From NCBI RefSeq assembly GCF_054482595.1, contig NZ_CM137008.1: a stretch of 64,000 nt of DNA, one strand, 5' to 3'. Within the stretch, counting starts at the first letter, position 1. The number at the start of each line of letters is the position of its first letter. A program made the position numbers and the translations under genes. The notes beneath the pieces were generated by a model that was given only the letters and a program-made list of their open reading frames with translations, was not told the origin of the DNA and did no database searches. Shown piece by piece: positions 10,130-42,826 of this stretch.

Positions 10130-11023
10130 TTACCAGCGGCCGGATGCGCCGCCACCTCCAGAAGAACCGCCCCCGCCGCTAAATCCGCCGCCACTTGAGC
10201 CTCCACCGGAAGAGGATGAAGAAGAACCTTTTCTTGAAGCTCTTTCTTTACTGAGTTTTTTGTATTTGGCGCGTAGCTTTTTATTGACGATAAGCCAAAA
10301 AATAACCAGTGGTACGATCGCAAAAGGCGTTAACATACCGCAGGCAACGATTAAATTGGTCCATGGTCCTGGCTCGGCAACATAGAGGAATACCATCCCG
10401 TAAATGGCGCCAGTGAGAGTGATCCAGGGTAAATTCGACGGATCGGTAAAAACAATAAAATATGAAAGTACCGCCAGCAATATAATTACAGCAAGCGATA
10501 ATGGAATAGGGGGATTGATACTGTAATAATCCCCCCTGTCTTCCGGTAATTCACCATTTAACAGAAGCGCGCCGATATTTTCGCTTGCCAGTGTTAATCC
10601 ACCCATCAGGTCATCACTTTTGAAGGCAGGGATCAATATATCCCTGATAATCTTCGCCGCTTGCAGGTCGGTAACCACCCCTTCCAGCCCGTAGCCAACC
10701 TCAATACGAACAGCATGATCCTCCCAGGCAACCAGAAGTAAAATACCATCGTTTCTCTGCTTATCTCCCAGTTTCCAGCTATCAAAAACCCTTGTAGCAT
10801 ATTGTTCAATGGAATCGTCTCCGGTGGACGGCACTACTAATACAGCGACCTGCGCCCGTGTTTTATGTGTAATATCCTGCAGTTGCTGTGTCAGTGATTG
10901 TTGTTCAGAAGTGCTTAACGTACCAGTAATATCGGTCACCTGTTGGCGCAGTTCCGGCACAGCAATTTGCTGGGCAAGCCCAGGAAGACACCACAAAGTG
11001 AATAGAATAAAGATTAAGCGCAT
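10130..11023 (-). CDS. ygcG: TPM-domain (YgcG-like) membrane protein, paralog 1, with Gly/Ser-rich C-terminal tail
   Basis: ORF 10130..11035; likely ATG at 11021-11023 giving MRLIFILFTLWCLPGLA signal peptide; TPM core GILLLVAWEDHAVRIEVGYGLEG; predicted TM helices; tail SGGGGSSGGGGASGRW. Confidence 0.8.
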   Translation of the reverse strand: MRLIFILFTLWCLPGLAQQIAVPELRQQVTDITGTLSTSEQQSLTQQLQDITHKTRAQVAVLVVPSTGDDSIEQYATRVFDSWKLGDKQRNDGILLLVAWEDHAVRIEVGYGLEGVVTDLQAAKIIRDILIPAFKSDDLMGGLTLASENIGALLLNGELPEDRGDYYSINPPIPLSLAVIILLAVLSYFIVFTDPSNLPWITLTGAIYGMVFLYVAEPGPWTNLIVACGMLTPFAIVPLVIFWLIVNKKLRAKYKKLSKERASRKGSSSSSSGGGSSGGGFSGGGGSSGGGGASGRW

Positions 11024-11028
11024 TACGA

Positions 11029-12177
11029 TCACCAACGGCCGGATGAACCGCCGCCTCCTGAAGAACCGCCACCACCGCGGAAAGAATTTCTCGACGAAGA
11101 GCGAGAGTGAGCATTACGATTCCCCGTTTTCCTGTTGCTTTTTTCTCCTGATCCCAGCTTAAGATTGCCAGTAAATTTGGCCACAATGATCAGCAGAACG
11201 ATGCCAGCAATGGTTATTGGACCGATAAAATGATCAATTAACCCAATAATTGTTGAGATGAATGCAATATCTTTAATACTGGCGAACACCAGGCACCATC
11301 CCACAATAATTATCAGCATCACGACAAACAATGAATTTCGTCCTGATTCACGAACCTGCGGAGTCTTCTTTTGTTTTTTCACTTTAGCGTTTTTATTTTT
11401 TGGGGCCAGCATCATAGGAAATACGCGGCACAAATTAAAAACTACCGCGAGACGCTGCTTGCAGGTTGTTGCTAACAATAAACTAAAACAAACGATCGAC
11501 ACCCGCCGAATGATGACATCGTCCTGAAAGGAGAAAAACCAGACCATAGGGGTAATCATCGATATCATCCATATGCCACGCCGTGGGCGGCTGGCAAATC
11601 GCCAGAGGACAACGATGGCAACGATCATCAGCAGTGTCCAGGCAAGACATGGCAGCGAACGTTGCGGATTAGCAAACAGATGATTGGCTAAAGCATCCAA
11701 AGGGCTAAGGTTCGCTTTGATATGGGTAAACTGTGCGATGCTTTCAATTCCGCCCGTTAATCCAGCAAAGAGATTGTTTTTTTCGAATTCTGGCTGCATA
11801 TGGTAACGAACAATTTGCGCAGCTTGTTCCGGCGGCAACATCTGTTCCAGTCCATGTCCAATCTTCATTGACGCCAGCCCTTCCGGCCATACGACGAGAA
11901 TTAAGATACCTTCGCCATATCGCTTCTCTCCAACGGGTTTCCAGTGATATACCCCGTATCTCTGCGAGGCTGCAAGTTTAATGTTTTTGCCCCCTGTGGT
12001 CGGCGTAACCAACACGGCCACCTGGAAGTGGTTTTGCTGCTCGAGAGTCTGTAATTGTTGAGTTAAAGCAGTTTGTTCTTCTGTCGTTAATGTCCCGGTT
12101 AAGTCAGTCACTGAAGGCAATCGTTCAGCGAATACCTGAAAACCGCATAGCATCAGAAGTAAGAGAAAAATACGCAT
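11029..12177 (-). CDS. TPM-domain membrane protein, paralog 2 (382 aa, extended membrane region)
   Basis: MRIFLLLLMLCGFQVFA signal peptide; TPM core GILILVVWPEGLASMKIGHGLEQ; several hydrophobic segments; Lys-rich linker; tail GGGGSSGGGGSSGRW; stop 5 nt from paralog 1 start. Confidence 0.75.
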   Translation of the reverse strand: MRIFLLLLMLCGFQVFAERLPSVTDLTGTLTTEEQTALTQQLQTLEQQNHFQVAVLVTPTTGGKNIKLAASQRYGVYHWKPVGEKRYGEGILILVVWPEGLASMKIGHGLEQMLPPEQAAQIVRYHMQPEFEKNNLFAGLTGGIESIAQFTHIKANLSPLDALANHLFANPQRSLPCLAWTLLMIVAIVVLWRFASRPRRGIWMISMITPMVWFFSFQDDVIIRRVSIVCFSLLLATTCKQRLAVVFNLCRVFPMMLAPKNKNAKVKKQKKTPQVRESGRNSLFVVMLIIIVGWCLVFASIKDIAFISTIIGLIDHFIGPITIAGIVLLIIVAKFTGNLKLGSGEKSNRKTGNRNAHSRSSSRNSFRGGGGSSGGGGSSGRW

Positions 12178-12191
12178 ATCAATTCCTTTTG

Positions 12192-13115
12192 TTACCAGCG
12201 CCCGGAAGCGCCACCGCCACCAGATGAACCGCCACCACCGCTAAAATTGTCATTGTCGAATGAAGAGGATGACGATGATGAATAGTGGGAGAAAGAATTG
12301 CTTCTTGTATGGCGTGATGGCTGGTTGGCATCACGCATCAAATCCCGAACTTTTTTGCCGAAGGGGGTAAAAGCGATGGCGACAGCCAGGAACGGTGTGG
12401 CGAAGCAGAGTAATGTTGTGAGTACTCCCCAGCTTCCGCTGAAACCTGCTATAGGTAAAACAAAGGCCAGTACAATAGCTGCGAAGCAAATTACTCCCAG
12501 CGTTTTGATATATCCTCTGGCAGAAATAAACGTCAGTACTATCGCCCAGGCTAACAAGGCCCACCAACCGCTAAAAGGTAAAGGGTGATCGGCCGGTGCT
12601 ATCGTCGCTAAATTATTCCCTGCCAAACGGTTTTCAATATCGCTGAGTCCCTTTTGCAAGCCGCCAGCAAGATCACCATTTTTAAATGCCGGAATAATAC
12701 TGTTGCGAATAATTTGCCCGGACTGCGCATCCGTAATAATACCTTCCAGTCCGTAACCGATTTCAATACGCACGGTATGATCCTGCCAGGCGACTAACAG
12801 TAGAACGCCATCATCGCTGTCTTTATCACCCGGTTTCCAGCTATCGAATACCCGCGTTGCGTACTGCTCGATGGTTTCATCGCCTGTTGTATCAACCACT
12901 AACACGACCAACTGTGCGTGGTTTTTTTGCGTCAGGGCTTTAATCTGGTTGGTCAGGGTGTTTACTTCGCTGTTTGTTAATGTGCCGGTTAAGTCATTCA
13001 CATACTTGGGGGATTCAGGTACTGGAATTTGTGTGGCAAACACAGATGAACAGAAGAAAGCCATAAGGAAGATAAAATTTCGCACAGAACTTCCCCGCTT
13101 AATGAGCATTAGCAT
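12192..13115 (-). CDS. TPM-domain membrane protein, paralog 3
   Basis: 307 aa ORF; TPM core GVLLLVAWQDHTVRIEIGYGLEG; TM helices; tail SGGGGSSGGGGASGRW; start ATG at 13115 or 13109, overlapping the lemA 3' end. Confidence 0.75.
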   Translation of the reverse strand: MLMLIKRGSSVRNFIFLMAFFCSSVFATQIPVPESPKYVNDLTGTLTNSEVNTLTNQIKALTQKNHAQLVVLVVDTTGDETIEQYATRVFDSWKPGDKDSDDGVLLLVAWQDHTVRIEIGYGLEGIITDAQSGQIIRNSIIPAFKNGDLAGGLQKGLSDIENRLAGNNLATIAPADHPLPFSGWWALLAWAIVLTFISARGYIKTLGVICFAAIVLAFVLPIAGFSGSWGVLTTLLCFATPFLAVAIAFTPFGKKVRDLMRDANQPSRHTRSNSFSHYSSSSSSSFDNDNFSGGGGSSGGGGASGRW

Positions 13116-14883: not shown

Positions 14884-15339
14884 GAGTTCCCCGCGCCAGC
14901 GGGGATAAACCGGCCTGGCGATTTCTCGTCAGGCCTTGCGGTGTGAGTTCCCCGCGCCAGCGGGGATAAACCGTCAGTAAAGCGGCGCCCACTGATATCG
15001 GATTAGAGTTCCCCGCGCCAGCGGGGATAAACCGAGGGGCAGGGAGTGACGCTGGAGCAGGCGATCGAGTTCCCCGCGCCAGCGGGGATAAACCGGGAAA
15101 TTAGGCAAATGTGAACACGGCGGCCCCGAGTTCCCCGCGCCAGCGGGGATAAACCGCCAGTATTTTGTCGTGGATTGCGGGATCACCAGAGTTCCCCGCG
15201 CCAGCGGGGATAAACCGTTGAGTTTGTTCGTAACAACGCGGGTCATCTGGAGTTCCCCGCGGCAGCGGGGATAAACCGGGTACAAAAGAGGCCCCATTCT
15301 GGCAGGGCTCAAGTTCCCCGCGCCAGTGGGGATAAACCA
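14884..15339 (+). CRISPR. Type I-E CRISPR array A: 8 repeats, 7 spacers of 32 nt
   Basis: Repeat gagttccccgcgccagcggggataaaccg at 14884, 14945, 15006, 15067, 15128, 15189, 15250 (c13g variant), 15311 (degenerate terminal); exact 61-bp period. Confidence 0.97.
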
Positions 15340-15793
15340 CCATATAACCCGTTATCTCTTTCTCAAGTTTTTATATTAGCAGTACTCGTAATAAGCAACA
15401 TATCCACGTAACACCTCATGTTCAAAATAGTTCCCCATGCCAGATAAGTTCACAATTATCGATACAAAAAATCAAATTTAATCAAAGTGTTATTTGTATA
15501 ATCCTTAAACCGTTAAGAAATTTTAATGTATTATTTTTTTTAATATTAATTAATGCCTGTTAATTTTTTCTTTAGAATAACAGTGTGTTTTTTAAGCTTG
15601 TTATTCATTGATTAAGTAATAAATCTGGAAATTTGTCTTTGTTTTGAGGCTAATGAGTGGTTTTACATAACCGCCTCTATACGCTGTTGATGAATGGTTC
15701 TTATGAATAAAGATATCCAGTTCATACTTTAAGTGTAAATTGATAAAGTGCGATTCGTATTGTCTTTTATTCTAAAGACATCGAGTGTAGTTA

Positions 15794-15932
15794 ATATTCC
15801 TTGTAAAAACAGGGATAAACCGAACTAGTTAAAGTTTTTATTATGTTCCCTGCATCAGCGGGGATAAACCGGACTTGTTATCATTTTTTAAGTTGTCGAA
15901 CTTATGTTCCCCGCGTCAGCGGGGATAACCAT
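15794..15932 (+). CRISPR. Decayed CRISPR remnant (3 degenerate repeats)
   Basis: Degenerate repeats at about 15794, 15843 (atgttccctgcatcagcggggataaaccg) and 15904 (atgttccccgcgtcagcggggataaccat); spacers 20 and 32 nt. Confidence 0.7.
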
Positions 15933-15977
15933 TCAGGTATGTTCAGGCCGGGCTGTTTCCCGCCCGGCCTTCCTCAC

Positions 15978-38301: not shown

Positions 38302-38976
38302 ATGAGATCTTATTTGATCTTGCGGCTTGCTGGGCCAATGCAAGCCTGGGGGCAGCCGACCTTTGAAGGAACGCGACCTACCGGAAGATTTCCGACCCGA
38401 AGCGGGTTATTAGGGCTACTCGGGGCTTGTCTTGGGATCCAACGTGATGATACTTCTTCATTACAGGCGTTATCAGAGAGTGTGCAATTTGCAGTGCGCT
38501 GCGATGAACTCATTCTTGACGATCGTCGTGTGTCTGTAACGGGGTTGCGTGATTACCATACAGTCCTTGGAGCGCGAGAAGATTACCGTGGTTTGAAAAG
38601 TCATGAAACGATTCAAACATGGCGCGAATATTTATGTGATGCCTCCTTTACCGTCGCTCTCTGGTTAACACCCCATGCAACGATGGTTATCTCAGAACTT
38701 GAAAAAGCAGTATTAAAGCCTCGGTATACACCCTACCTGGGGCGGAGAAGTTGCCCACTAACACACCCGCTTTTTTTGGGGACATGTCAGGCATCGGATC
38801 CTCAGAAGGCGCTATTAAATTATGAGCCCGTTGGCGGCGATATATATAGTGAGGAATCAGTTACAGGGCATCATTTAAAATTTACGGCGCGCGACGAACC
38901 GATGATCACCTTACCTCGACAATTTGCTTCCCGAGAATGGTATGTGATTAAAGGAGGTATGGATGTATCTCAGTAA
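38302..38976 (+). CDS. casD: Cas5e (CasD)
   Basis: ATG at 38302 (MRSYLILRLAGPMQAWGQPTFEG), 224 aa; ORF-track start 38296 is GTG two codons upstream. Confidence 0.93.
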   Translation: MRSYLILRLAGPMQAWGQPTFEGTRPTGRFPTRSGLLGLLGACLGIQRDDTSSLQALSESVQFAVRCDELILDDRRVSVTGLRDYHTVLGAREDYRGLKSHETIQTWREYLCDASFTVALWLTPHATMVISELEKAVLKPRYTPYLGRRSCPLTHPLFLGTCQASDPQKALLNYEPVGGDIYSEESVTGHHLKFTARDEPMITLPRQFASREWYVIKGGMDVSQ

Positions 38977-39562
38977 AGTCATCATTGCCAGGGCCTGGAG
39001 CAGGGATCTTTACCAACTTCACCAGGGATTATGGCATTTATTTCCAAACAGACCGGATGCTGCTCGTGATTTTCTTTTTCATGTTGAGAAGCGAAACACA
39101 CCAGAAGGCTGTCATGTTTTATTGCAGTCAGCGCAAATGCCTGTTTCAACTGCCGTTGCGACAGTCATTAAAACTAAACAGGTTGAATTTCAACTTCAGG
39201 TTGGTGTTCCACTCTATTTTCGGCTTCGGGCAAATCCGATCAAAACTATTCTCGACAATCAAAAGCGCCTGGACAGTAAAGGGAATATTAAACGCTGTCG
39301 GGTTCCGTTAATAAAAGAAGCAGAACAAATCGCGTGGTTGCAACGTAAATTGGGCAATGCGGCGCGCGTTGAAGATGTGCATCCCATATCGGAACGGCCA
39401 CAGTATTTTTCTGGTGATGGTAAAAGTGGAAAGATCCAAACGGTTTGCTTTGAAGGTGTGCTCACCATCAACGACGCGCCAGCGTTAATAGATCTTGTAC
39501 AGCAAGGTATTGGGCCAGCTAAATCGATGGGATGTGGCTTGCTATCTTTGGCTCCACTGTGA
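38963..39562 (+). CDS. casE: Cas6e (CasE) crRNA endoribonuclease
   Basis: 199 aa ORF MYLSKVIIARAWSRDLYQLHQGLWHLF; overlaps casD 3' end. Confidence 0.95.
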   Translation: MYLSKVIIARAWSRDLYQLHQGLWHLFPNRPDAARDFLFHVEKRNTPEGCHVLLQSAQMPVSTAVATVIKTKQVEFQLQVGVPLYFRLRANPIKTILDNQKRLDSKGNIKRCRVPLIKEAEQIAWLQRKLGNAARVEDVHPISERPQYFSGDGKSGKIQTVCFEGVLTINDAPALIDLVQQGIGPAKSMGCGLLSLAPL

Positions 39563-39577
39563 TTGAGGTGTAATAAA

Positions 39578-40780
<1,203 letters not shown>

Positions 40781-40885
40781 AAACAAAGAATTAGCTGATC
40801 TTTAATAATAAGGAAATGTTACATTAAGGTTGGTGGGTTGTTTTTATGGGAAAAAATGCTTTCAGAACAAATGTATACTTTTAGA
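40781..40885 (+). promoter_or_regulatory. CRISPR leader for array B
   Basis: AT-rich, ends ...gggaaaaaatgctttcagaacaaatgtatacttttaga directly before first repeat. Confidence 0.8.
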
Positions 40886-41768
40886 GAGTTCCCCGCGCCA
40901 GCGGGGATAAACCGCATTTAATGCAAAACTAATTGCACAATAAATAGAGTTCCCCGCGCCAGCGGGGATAAACCGGCGATAAACCTCCTCATCGCTGATA
41001 TCAATAAGAGTTCCCCGCGCCAGCGGGGATAAACCGATAAAGGCTCGGCGGCGCAAAAAATGGCACGGGAGTTCCCCGCGCCAGCGGGGATAAACCGCTC
41101 TCGTTGTTGTGCCTCAGTACCGGTGCGCGGAGTTCCCCGCGCCAGCGGGGATAAACCGCACACCGGTGCGACGGGAAACGTTCAGCGGCCGAGTTCCCCG
41201 CGCCAGCGGGGATAAACCGGGAATAGTTAATTTCGGTGATGGCTGCGTAAAGAGTTCCCCGCGGCAGCGGGGATAAACCGAGTAATGCTGCGTTGAGATG
41301 ACCAGGCGGGCTGAGTTCCCCGCGGCAGCGGGGATAAACCGTTGACGCCAGCGGCGACCCGCGCCACGGGCTTGAGTTCCCCGCGCCAGCGGGGATAAAC
41401 CGTAGCCAGACGTACTCGCAATCTGTCGGCGGTCGAGTTCCCCGCGCCAGCGGGGATAAACCACCAGTTCTCCGTATTCTGTGGTTATCGTTGCTGAGTT
41501 CCCCGCGCCAGCGGGGATAAACCGGGAGTTCAGACATAGGTGGAATGATGGACTACGAGTTCCCCGCGTTAGCGGGGATAAACCGCCCGGTAGCCAGGTT
41601 TGCAACGCCTGAACCGAGAGTTCCCCGCGCCAGCAGGGATAAACCGGCAACGACGGTGAGATTTCACGCCTGACGCTGGTGTTCCCCGCGCCAGCGGGGA
41701 TAAACCGGGCGCACTGGATGCGATGATGGATATCACTGAGAATTCCCCGCCCCTGCGGTAGAACACCC
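40886..41768 (+). CRISPR. Type I-E CRISPR array B: 15 repeats, 14 spacers of 32 nt
   Basis: Repeats every 61 bp from 40886 to 41740; variants at repeats 7-8 (c13g), 10 (3' a), 12 (cc to tt), 13 (g to a), 14 (a2t); terminal repeat 41740-41768 degenerate. Confidence 0.97.
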
Positions 41769-41788
41769 AGCTCCCATTTTCCAACCCA

Positions 41789-42826
41789 TCAAGACGCCTT
41801 CGCCAGCTCCTTCACCAACGGTAGCATTATCCGCATAACATCACGGCAGCGACGTTCTATTCTTCCAGGAAGTGCCTTATCAATATGTTGTTGATTATCC
41901 AGTCTTACGTCATGCCAGCTATTTCCCGCCGGGAAGGCAGGTGTTTTTGCGCGTTGCTGATAACCATCCTTATTCCCAAGATTCCAGTTAGTCGCTTCCA
42001 CCGAAAGTACAGCAATGCCCGCTTTGTCGAATATTTCTGCGTCATTACAACACCCAGTGCCTTTCGGATAATTTTTATTCAAACCCGGATTGGTCGTTGC
42101 GGCAATTCCATGACTACGCGCAATTGCCAGCGCCCTGTCGCGCGTTAATTTCCTTACTGCTTCAGGGGTTTTTACACCGCTGTTGAAATACAATTTATCG
42201 CCAACAATTAAGTTATCGAGATTAATCACCAGCAGCGTATTTTTCTTTTCGGTGTCACTCATCCGCTTGAGTAAATTCTCAGCGCCTAATTTCCCTTCCT
42301 CTTCGCCGCTGGTCGCCACAAATCGAATACCATACTCGGTAGGCGTATTTTTCAGGCGTTCTGCCAATTCCAGCATGACACCTAAACCTGCGGCGTTATC
42401 ATCCATTCCTTGTAACGTCAGCCCGCCGAGATTGGCATCGGCGTCAGCATCGCTCAGCGGGGCGTAAGTATCCAGATGCGCCATAATGATGATCTGCTGC
42501 GGGGCTTTGCCTTCATGAGCGGCAATCACCGTACTTCCCGTCACGTTATGCCAGCTCTTACGATTATCGCGGGCGGTATAAATATACCGACTATTAAATG
42601 TCCGAATATCACTGCGATAACCCATTTGCTGAAACTGTTGGCGAATATAATCGGCAGATAACATTTCTGCAGGAGTTCCGGTCATGCGTCCCGGAAAGAA
42701 AGTAGCAATATGTCGTGCCTGAGTATTAGCAAAATCGCCAGGTTTAGGTGACGAGGCGTGTACGGGGAGAATAAAGCATACGCCGAGCGCCAAGGCAGCG
42801 GTACGGTGGCGCAATGCGGAAAACAT
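41789..42826 (-). CDS. iap: Alkaline phosphatase isozyme conversion aminopeptidase
   Basis: 345 aa ORF MFSALRHRTAALALGVCFILPVHA with signal peptide. Confidence 0.92.
   Translation of the reverse strand: MFSALRHRTAALALGVCFILPVHASSPKPGDFANTQARHIATFFPGRMTGTPAEMLSADYIRQQFQQMGYRSDIRTFNSRYIYTARDNRKSWHNVTGSTVIAAHEGKAPQQIIIMAHLDTYAPLSDADADANLGGLTLQGMDDNAAGLGVMLELAERLKNTPTEYGIRFVATSGEEEGKLGAENLLKRMSDTEKKNTLLVINLDNLIVGDKLYFNSGVKTPEAVRKLTRDRALAIARSHGIAATTNPGLNKNYPKGTGCCNDAEIFDKAGIAVLSVEATNWNLGNKDGYQQRAKTPAFPAGNSWHDVRLDNQQHIDKALPGRIERRCRDVMRIMLPLVKELAKAS

Follow-up and report, generated by a model that had tools for sequence, protein, structure and literature searches.

Organization of the CRISPR2.1 locus

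The window, that is, the whole stretch of 64,000 nucleotides analysed here, is a segment of an E. coli chromosome. Its region 40780–41900 recurs with 100% identity in 8 independent complete genomes, TUM18780, 88COLEC, and APEC37 among them. In the annotation of the matching records, the genes follow the order cysH, cas3, casA, casB, cas7e, cas5e, cas6e, cas1e (frameshifted), cas2e, CRISPR, and iap. The CRISPR array of interest (hereafter designated array B) is thus located between cysH and iap, together with the adjoining cas3-casA-casB-cas7-cas5-cas6e-cas1-cas2 operon and an AT-rich leader, and the array region itself is annotated as CRISPR in NZ_AP023197.1, a record 100% identical to it. The following features of the window are considered below; the coordinates of cas2e were carried over from the annotation of a matching record (offset, 30779).

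14884–15339: array A, which is CRISPR2.3
38963–39562, plus strand: cas6e (casE), encoding the pre-crRNA endonuclease, identical to CasE of K-12 MG1655 in 199/199 amino acids
39578–40494, plus strand: cas1e pseudogene, put out of frame beyond about residue 147 (of 305) by a 1-bp deletion at about 40018
40496–40780, plus strand: cas2e
40781–40885, plus strand: leader (leader-T or K-12 type), which sets the array polarity, identical to the K-12 leader at 104/105 positions and to an E1-type leader at 73/105
40886–41768, plus strand: array B, the E. coli type I-E CRISPR2.1 array extending from cas2 to iap, with 15 repeats and 14 spacers in a 61-bp period
41789–42826, minus strand: iap, a convergent gene delimiting the array on its trailer side

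The repeats of array B (R1–R15) start at 40886+61n and are 29 nt long (28 nt plus one spacer-derived base), separated by 32-nt spacers (S1–S14). Their consensus, GAGTTCCCCGCGCCAGCGGGGATAAACCG, is found exactly in 8/15 repeats and agrees with the E. coli type 2 repeat consensus (PMC3737337); its predicted fold is a 7-bp stem with a tetraloop (minimum free energy (MFE), −15.1 kcal/mol; z, −3.6). Because the leader occupies 40781–40885, the segment 41557–41768 is the leader-distal end of array B. This segment, for which the first-pass annotation had proposed a mutation load rising with distance from the leader, coincides exactly with R12 through R15.

The cas1e pseudogene has 917 nt versus 918 nt in K-12 cas1, with 12 further mismatches, and is likewise annotated as a frameshifted pseudogene in TUM18780 and O157:H16 Santai. 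With cas1 frameshifted, the locus lacks an intact Cas1-Cas2 adaptation module, array B being a CRISPR array nonetheless; in all structural respects tested, the locus belongs to the E. coli I-E CRISPR2.1 family, and the cas1 pseudogene is its sole defect. Owing to the 1-bp deletion, array B cannot grow further in this lineage, in which adaptation is presumably dead and the arrays are frozen. An Rfam scan of array B gave sub-threshold chance matches only, a promoter scan of the leader under a strict rule gave no consensus sigma-70 site, and the terminator-like calls of a terminator scan were confined to the repeat hairpins. Searches of phage and plasmid collections with all 14 spacers revealed no target; the matches were either mis-filed CRISPR arrays or weak chance ones.

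Variant repeats and their distal bias

Parsing of array B into its units bore out what the first-pass annotation had read from the letters: R1–R6, R9, and R11 are consensus, R12 has a cc to tt change in the loop, R13 has a G to A change in the 3' stem (G18 being the partner of C9), R14 has an A to T change at position 2, and R15 is largely degenerate (9/29 mismatches). These and the remaining variants are distributed as follows.

41252–41341, plus strand: R7-S7-R8, with C13G in both repeats, an island flanked by consensus repeats and also found in Santai
41435–41463, plus strand: R10, with G29A at the position that enters with the spacer
41525–41678, plus strand: block S11-R12-S12-R13-S13, shared unchanged with K-12
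41557–41585, plus strand: R12, with C13T and C14T, converting the tetraloop GCCA to GUUA
41618–41646, plus strand: R13, with G18A, by which pair four of the stem (the first being C6-G21) becomes a C9·A18 mismatch
41679–41707, plus strand: R14, with A2T, a CRISPR-A (GTG...) repeat within a CRISPR-T (GAG...) array
41708–41739, plus strand: S14, the species-wide 'anchor' spacer GGCGCACTGGATGCGATGATGGATATCACTGA
41740–41768, plus strand: R15, the degenerate terminal repeat GAATTCCCCGCCCCTGCGGTAGAACACCC, with four stem pairs left and G21 replaced by A

The variants in R12–R14 are all situated within the 21-nt part of the repeat that forms the 3' handle (positions 1–21), and none is in the 8-nt 5' handle. 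The G29A change in R10 is not a repeat mutation, since base 29 is inserted with the spacer (PMC3737337).

Variant repeats are biased toward the distal end of array B, as indicated by an exact rank-sum test (p=0.0030, n=15; p=0.0063 without the terminal repeat), by a Spearman correlation (rho = 0.75, p=0.0013), and by the comparison of R12–R15 (4/4 variant) with R1–R11 (3/11 variant; Fisher p=0.026). In a conservative test, in which R10 (spacer-borne base) and R14 (alternative repeat type) were set aside and R7/R8 were counted as one event, the value was p=0.06–0.09, so that array B by itself provides only modest evidence. The bias is repeated in array A, where the variants are R7 and R8 of 8 repeats. 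Moreover, among 111 distinct repeat-spacer units from 12 E. coli CRISPR2.1 arrays (terminal repeats left out and shared units counted once), the 17 variant units had a mean normalised position of 0.69, which was reached in 0/20,000 within-array shuffles. Variants are thus enriched toward the trailer, with the terminal repeat being the most divergent.

Spacer 8 of array B (41342–41373; TTGACGCCAGCGGCGACCCGCGCCACGGGCTT) shares two 9-mers with the repeat core, CGCCAGCGG (positions 11–19 of the repeat) and CCCGCGCCA (positions 7–15); its source may have been a CRISPR-like sequence, or it may be a rearranged repeat. When the array was folded locally, this spacer reduced the hairpin probability of R8 to 0.55, compared with at least 0.92 for all other repeats.

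Sharing of array B units among E. coli genomes

A set of 5,426 complete E. coli genomes was probed with two-spacer units of array B, a genome being counted when at least 80% of the unit was present, and the breadth of sharing was taken as a proxy for age.

S1-R2-S2: 11 genomes of 5,426
S6-R7-S7: 14 genomes of 5,426
S9-R10-S10: 16 genomes of 5,426
S12-R13-S13: 650 genomes of 5,426, 643 of them with an exact match
S14-R15: 3,746 genomes of 5,426

Sharing climbs steeply toward the trailer, and the variants of R12–R15 fall in the two oldest tiers. These results support the age gradient that had been proposed for the array, in that the distal units are older, far more widely shared, and hold the variants. 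Two corrections attach to this reading: the variants were inherited, and R14 is not a product of decay.

An inherited K-12-type block

K-12, EC15, L26, and Santai all carry the block S11-R12(TT)-S12-R13(G18A)-S13 without a single base difference, and S12 and S13 of the window correspond to sp1.11 and sp1.12 of K-12. At the leader-proximal end, the spacers of K-12, EC15, and L26 are wholly unlike those of the window, and the Santai array is the array of the window minus two units. Judged from these identities, the variants of R12 and R13 are inherited alleles and not signs of ongoing decay in this strain. The K-12 repeat with the 'TT mutations' has been printed in the CRISPRDetect paper as an example of mutation in a 3'-end repeat (PMC4869251).

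The G18A change of R13 recurs elsewhere, so that three contexts are known: the K-12-type block, R3 of O121 RM8352 (L003, 1560–1588), a GTG-type repeat with unrelated flanking spacers, and R1 of the short CRISPR2.3 array of EcPNK004 (L014, 1503–1531). In the last of these, no CRISPR feature is annotated and no cas gene was found within the 3-kb stretch examined. Since G18A is there in the first, leader-proximal repeat, variants are not strictly distal. The recurrence would fit a recurrent, unconstrained transition.

A CRISPR-A repeat and the terminal anchor

R14, GTGTTCCCCGCGCCAGCGGGGATAAACCG, has T at position 2 (GTGTTCC...) and is otherwise consensus, making it an exact copy of the CRISPR-A type. 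CRISPR-A is the repeat type of the cas-EO (E1) lineage, whereas cas-EK (E2) strains with leader-T use CRISPR-T, which starts with GAG (PMC3737337); in E. coli cas-E, E1 has been replaced by E2 (PMC3903273). Five of the arrays compared (L003, L004, L005, L011, and L012) have GTGTTCCCCGCGCCAGCGGGGATAAACCG throughout, and the array of PEC1021 (L013) has the same type with an additional C27T in most repeats. The stretch from R14 to the trailer is identical to that of the E1 strain O121 RM8352 at 147/150 positions and to that of K-12 at only 138/150, and the block directly upstream of R14 is identical to K-12. Array B is therefore a mosaic, in which a K-12-identical block adjoins an E1-like end. 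R14, with its exact CRISPR-A allele and E1-like trailer, appears to be a CRISPR-A unit that was retained or recombined in, and its explanation as a decay mutation was rejected.

A degenerate repeat with its spacer has been described as an 'anchor' at the iap end of CRISPR2.1, whichever cas-E variant is present (Almendros et al. 2014, PMC3903273). All 12 arrays parsed have S14, in slightly varying form, on their iap side, and R15 matches the terminal repeat of E1 strains at 28/29 positions. By this comparison, R15 is old and stable and is not actively eroding. The exact S14-R15 allele of the window is uncommon, being present in 29 genomes at 99% identity or more.

Origin of the distal variants

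Taken with the known mode of array growth, these observations make it highly probable that 41557–41768 is the oldest, iap-proximal end of CRISPR2.1 and that its variants are fossils with separate histories. Spacers are inserted at the leader-repeat junction with duplication of the first repeat (PMC3737337; PMC4869251), and it is a general rule that repeat mutations build up leader-distally (PMC4869251). Growth of the array would thus be one-ended: because the first repeat is duplicated at each insertion, the leader-proximal repeats would be recent copies of one template and hence alike, and the distal repeats, never re-copied, would keep each substitution or the repeat type in use at the time of their formation. 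R12 (loop TT) and R13 (stem G18A) would then represent a three-spacer block passed unchanged to about 650 sequenced genomes including K-12, R14 a CRISPR-A unit retained or recombined in with the anchor S14-R15, and R15 the long-degenerate terminal repeat of that anchor.

The copying of leader-proximal repeats can be followed in the PEC1021 array (L013, 2377–2800), in which R1–R7 all have C27T, within the part forming the 5' handle, and the older R8–R10 are without it; a change in a leader-proximal repeat was therefore propagated to all later units. The C27T change of PEC1021 is in itself a 5'-handle variant that has been tolerated or fixed.

Polar growth alone does not explain the C13G island of R7/R8, which stands between consensus repeats and thus calls for recombination or reversion. 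C13G is also found in R7 of array A (15250–15278), and its presence in both arrays suggests recombination or inter-array exchange. Together with the junction of K-12-type and E1-type sequence between S13 and R14, the island points to inter-array recombination, a process documented at CRISPR2.1 (PMC3903273; PMC4524480). On the sequences compared here, part of the pattern would be mosaic block assembly and not in-place decay. Substitution in place after acquisition of the unit is plausible for R12 and R13, and not for R14 or R10. Selection against processing defects is probably weak, given the great age of the spacers, the lack of a target in the phage and plasmid collections searched, the frameshift in cas1, and the silencing of the E. 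coli I-E system by H-NS (PMC5965381).

Among the alternatives, mosaic assembly can be carried furthest, and we put the chance at about one half that the gradient reflects the provenance of recombined blocks of different origin, namely strain-specific S1–S10, K-12-type S11–S13, and the E1-type anchor R14-S14-R15, and not time-dependent decay in place. The perfect identity of S11–S13 to K-12 next to an E1-like end argues for it, as do the C13G island amid consensus repeats, the documented recombination at CRISPR2.1, and the iap protein WP_000490429.1, which is common to the E1 strain 2014C-3051. Mosaic assembly is nevertheless compatible with the age model, as the blocks are still ranked by breadth of sharing, and the need remains for the substitutions of R12 and R13 to have arisen, and been kept, in units no longer re-copied.

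Selection could instead have kept the G18A repeat and the degenerate terminal repeat as functional variants, with candidate roles in limiting processing, in marking the array end, or as an 'anchor' against total loss through repeat-repeat recombination, the last of which has been put forward (PMC3903273). The persistence of G18A unchanged in 643/650 carriers, its occurrence in three unrelated contexts, and the 28/29 conservation of R15 across cas-E lineages are consistent with such roles. However, the 643 genomes include many laboratory derivatives of K-12 and clonal relatives, so that the conservation may reflect no more than recent common descent; one recurrence of G18A is in a locus without annotated nearby cas genes or a CRISPR feature, which fits unconstrained mutation; and G-to-A transitions are common. 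We therefore consider selection for function improbable. Still less probable is that the G18A repeat is a recurrent, tolerated or favoured allele blocking Cas6e at one position; if true, the blocked cut would lead to a two-spacer RNA, S12-R13-S13, or to specific silencing of S13. Chance placement of the variants, which the conservative single-array p=0.06–0.09 would allow, has next to no likelihood, given the cross-array shuffles and the like bias of array A, and sequencing or assembly error was ruled out by the identity of the array in 8 genomes and by the presence of the R12/R13 variants in K-12 and about 650 genomes.

Predicted processing of the distal repeats by Cas6e

For the oldest units of array B, the repeat variants raise the further point of processing, as the first-pass annotation had suggested that processing of the distal spacers is poor. 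In a mature I-E crRNA, the 32-nt spacer is preceded by 8 nt from the upstream repeat and followed by 21 nt from the downstream one, the latter folded into a 7-bp stem with a tetraloop; the stem base is the site of Cas6e cleavage (PMC5965381). All eight nucleotides of the 5' handle are needed, and a single nucleotide of the 3' handle suffices in vitro (PMC4288178); handle requirements are also treated in PMC4499155. Each repeat form was folded alone, with the following results.

Consensus: MFE −15.1 kcal/mol, full stem
C13G (R7, R8): MFE −15.1 kcal/mol, hairpin as in the consensus
TT (R12): MFE −15.1 kcal/mol, hairpin as in the consensus
A2T (R14): MFE −15.2 kcal/mol, centroid equal to the consensus hairpin at −15.1 kcal/mol
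G18A (R13): MFE −8.9 kcal/mol, interrupted stem
R15: MFE −5.3 kcal/mol, four pairs, without C6-G21, C7-G20, and the cleavage-site G

In local folding with 32-nt flanks on each side, the interrupted stem of R13 forms with a probability of 0.93. A fold of the whole transcript of about 1 kb gave erratic inter-repeat pairing, with loss, for example, of the R8 and R10 hairpins; it was rejected as an artefact of global folding, and the local values were used.

According to these predictions, poor processing is plausible only at R13 and R15, and not at R12 or R14. Cas6e would be impaired at R13 by the weakened, interrupted stem, and at R15 by the loss of the basal pairs and of G21. If R13 stayed uncut, the loss would fall chiefly on S13, left with no free 8-nt 5' handle, and in part on S12, left with no 3' hairpin. 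The crRNA of S14 would possess a normal 5' handle; lacking a canonical 3' hairpin, it would be held less stably in Cascade (PMC4499155). No effect is expected on S11 or on the 5' end of S14, as the R12 hairpin is unchanged and the shift at R14 is only 0.1 kcal/mol.

In the literature, we found no per-spacer crRNA abundance for the distal K-12 spacers, and PMC11317134 contains no repeat mutagenesis. In K-12, spacers 2, 4, and 8 account for 68% of the Cascade-bound crRNA, and sp1.1, 1.3, 1.4, and 1.8 are the spacers behind off-target binding by Cascade (PMC5904413). The distal K-12 spacers are not prominent in those data, and neither are several proximal spacers with perfect repeats. As Cas6e, R12, and R13 are identical to those of K-12, the processing hypothesis is addressable in K-12, and the isolate itself is not needed.

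Relation to known CRISPR2.1 arrays

The iap-cas2 array of K-12, termed CRISPR-I or CRISPR2.1, was reportedly described by Ishino in 1987 and by Diez-Villasenor in 2010 and 2013. Array B resembles it in the locus (cysH-cas-CRISPR-iap), the CRISPR-T repeat, the leader (104/105), Cas6e (199/199), and the identical distal block. It differs from the K-12 array in several respects: the ten leader-proximal spacers of the window are unrelated, its penultimate repeat is pure CRISPR-A whereas that of K-12 adds G12A and C13T, its S14 ends in GA and that of K-12 in TG, its terminal repeat is an E1-like allele without the K-12 indel, and its cas1 is frameshifted.

A 3'-end concentration of variants, with most divergence in the terminal repeat, is also the pattern of leader-distal degeneration that serves as an orientation cue in CRISPRDirection/CRISPRDetect (PMC4869251). 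Nothing essential differs from that pattern, except that R14 of the window is an alternative repeat type and not a decay product. S14-R15 is the very tandem described as an anchor by Almendros and coworkers (PMC3903273), which is present in both cas-E lineages. In terms of the types of Diez-Villasenor et al. 2013 (PMC3737337), R1–R13 are CRISPR-T, accompanied by leader-T and K-12-type cas genes, and R14 is CRISPR-A; unlike in that scheme, a lone CRISPR-A unit ends a CRISPR-T array.

The pattern is therefore an instance of known leader-distal repeat degeneration, and the K-12 variants, the anchor, and the CRISPR-A type have already been published. Its importance beyond correct annotation is slight. 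It fixes the orientation of array B and shows it to be a three-tier mosaic, made up of spacers specific to the strain, a block of K-12 type, and a species-wide anchor with the repeat type of the other lineage.

Additional repeats in the window

The last repeat of array A (15311–15339) carries three changes, G1A, C17T, and G29A. About 450 bp past this array, three degenerate repeat copies represent the CRISPR2.2 remnant (15787–15937), and the same layout is seen in EcPNK004. Spacer 3 of array A (15035–15066; AGGGGCAGGGAGTGACGCTGGAGCAGGCGATC) is identical to a CRISPR2.1 spacer of PEC1021 (L013, 2772–2803), an E1-type array with GTG repeats. The presence of AGGGGCAGGGAGTGACGCTGGAGCAGGCGATC in different arrays and cas lineages could result from independent acquisition or from inter-array transfer. 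Elsewhere in the window, at 10132–12246, a G+C-rich segment of 53 nt is present in three copies, 79–81% identical and 899 and 1163 bp apart, which are probably conserved stretches of paralogous genes.
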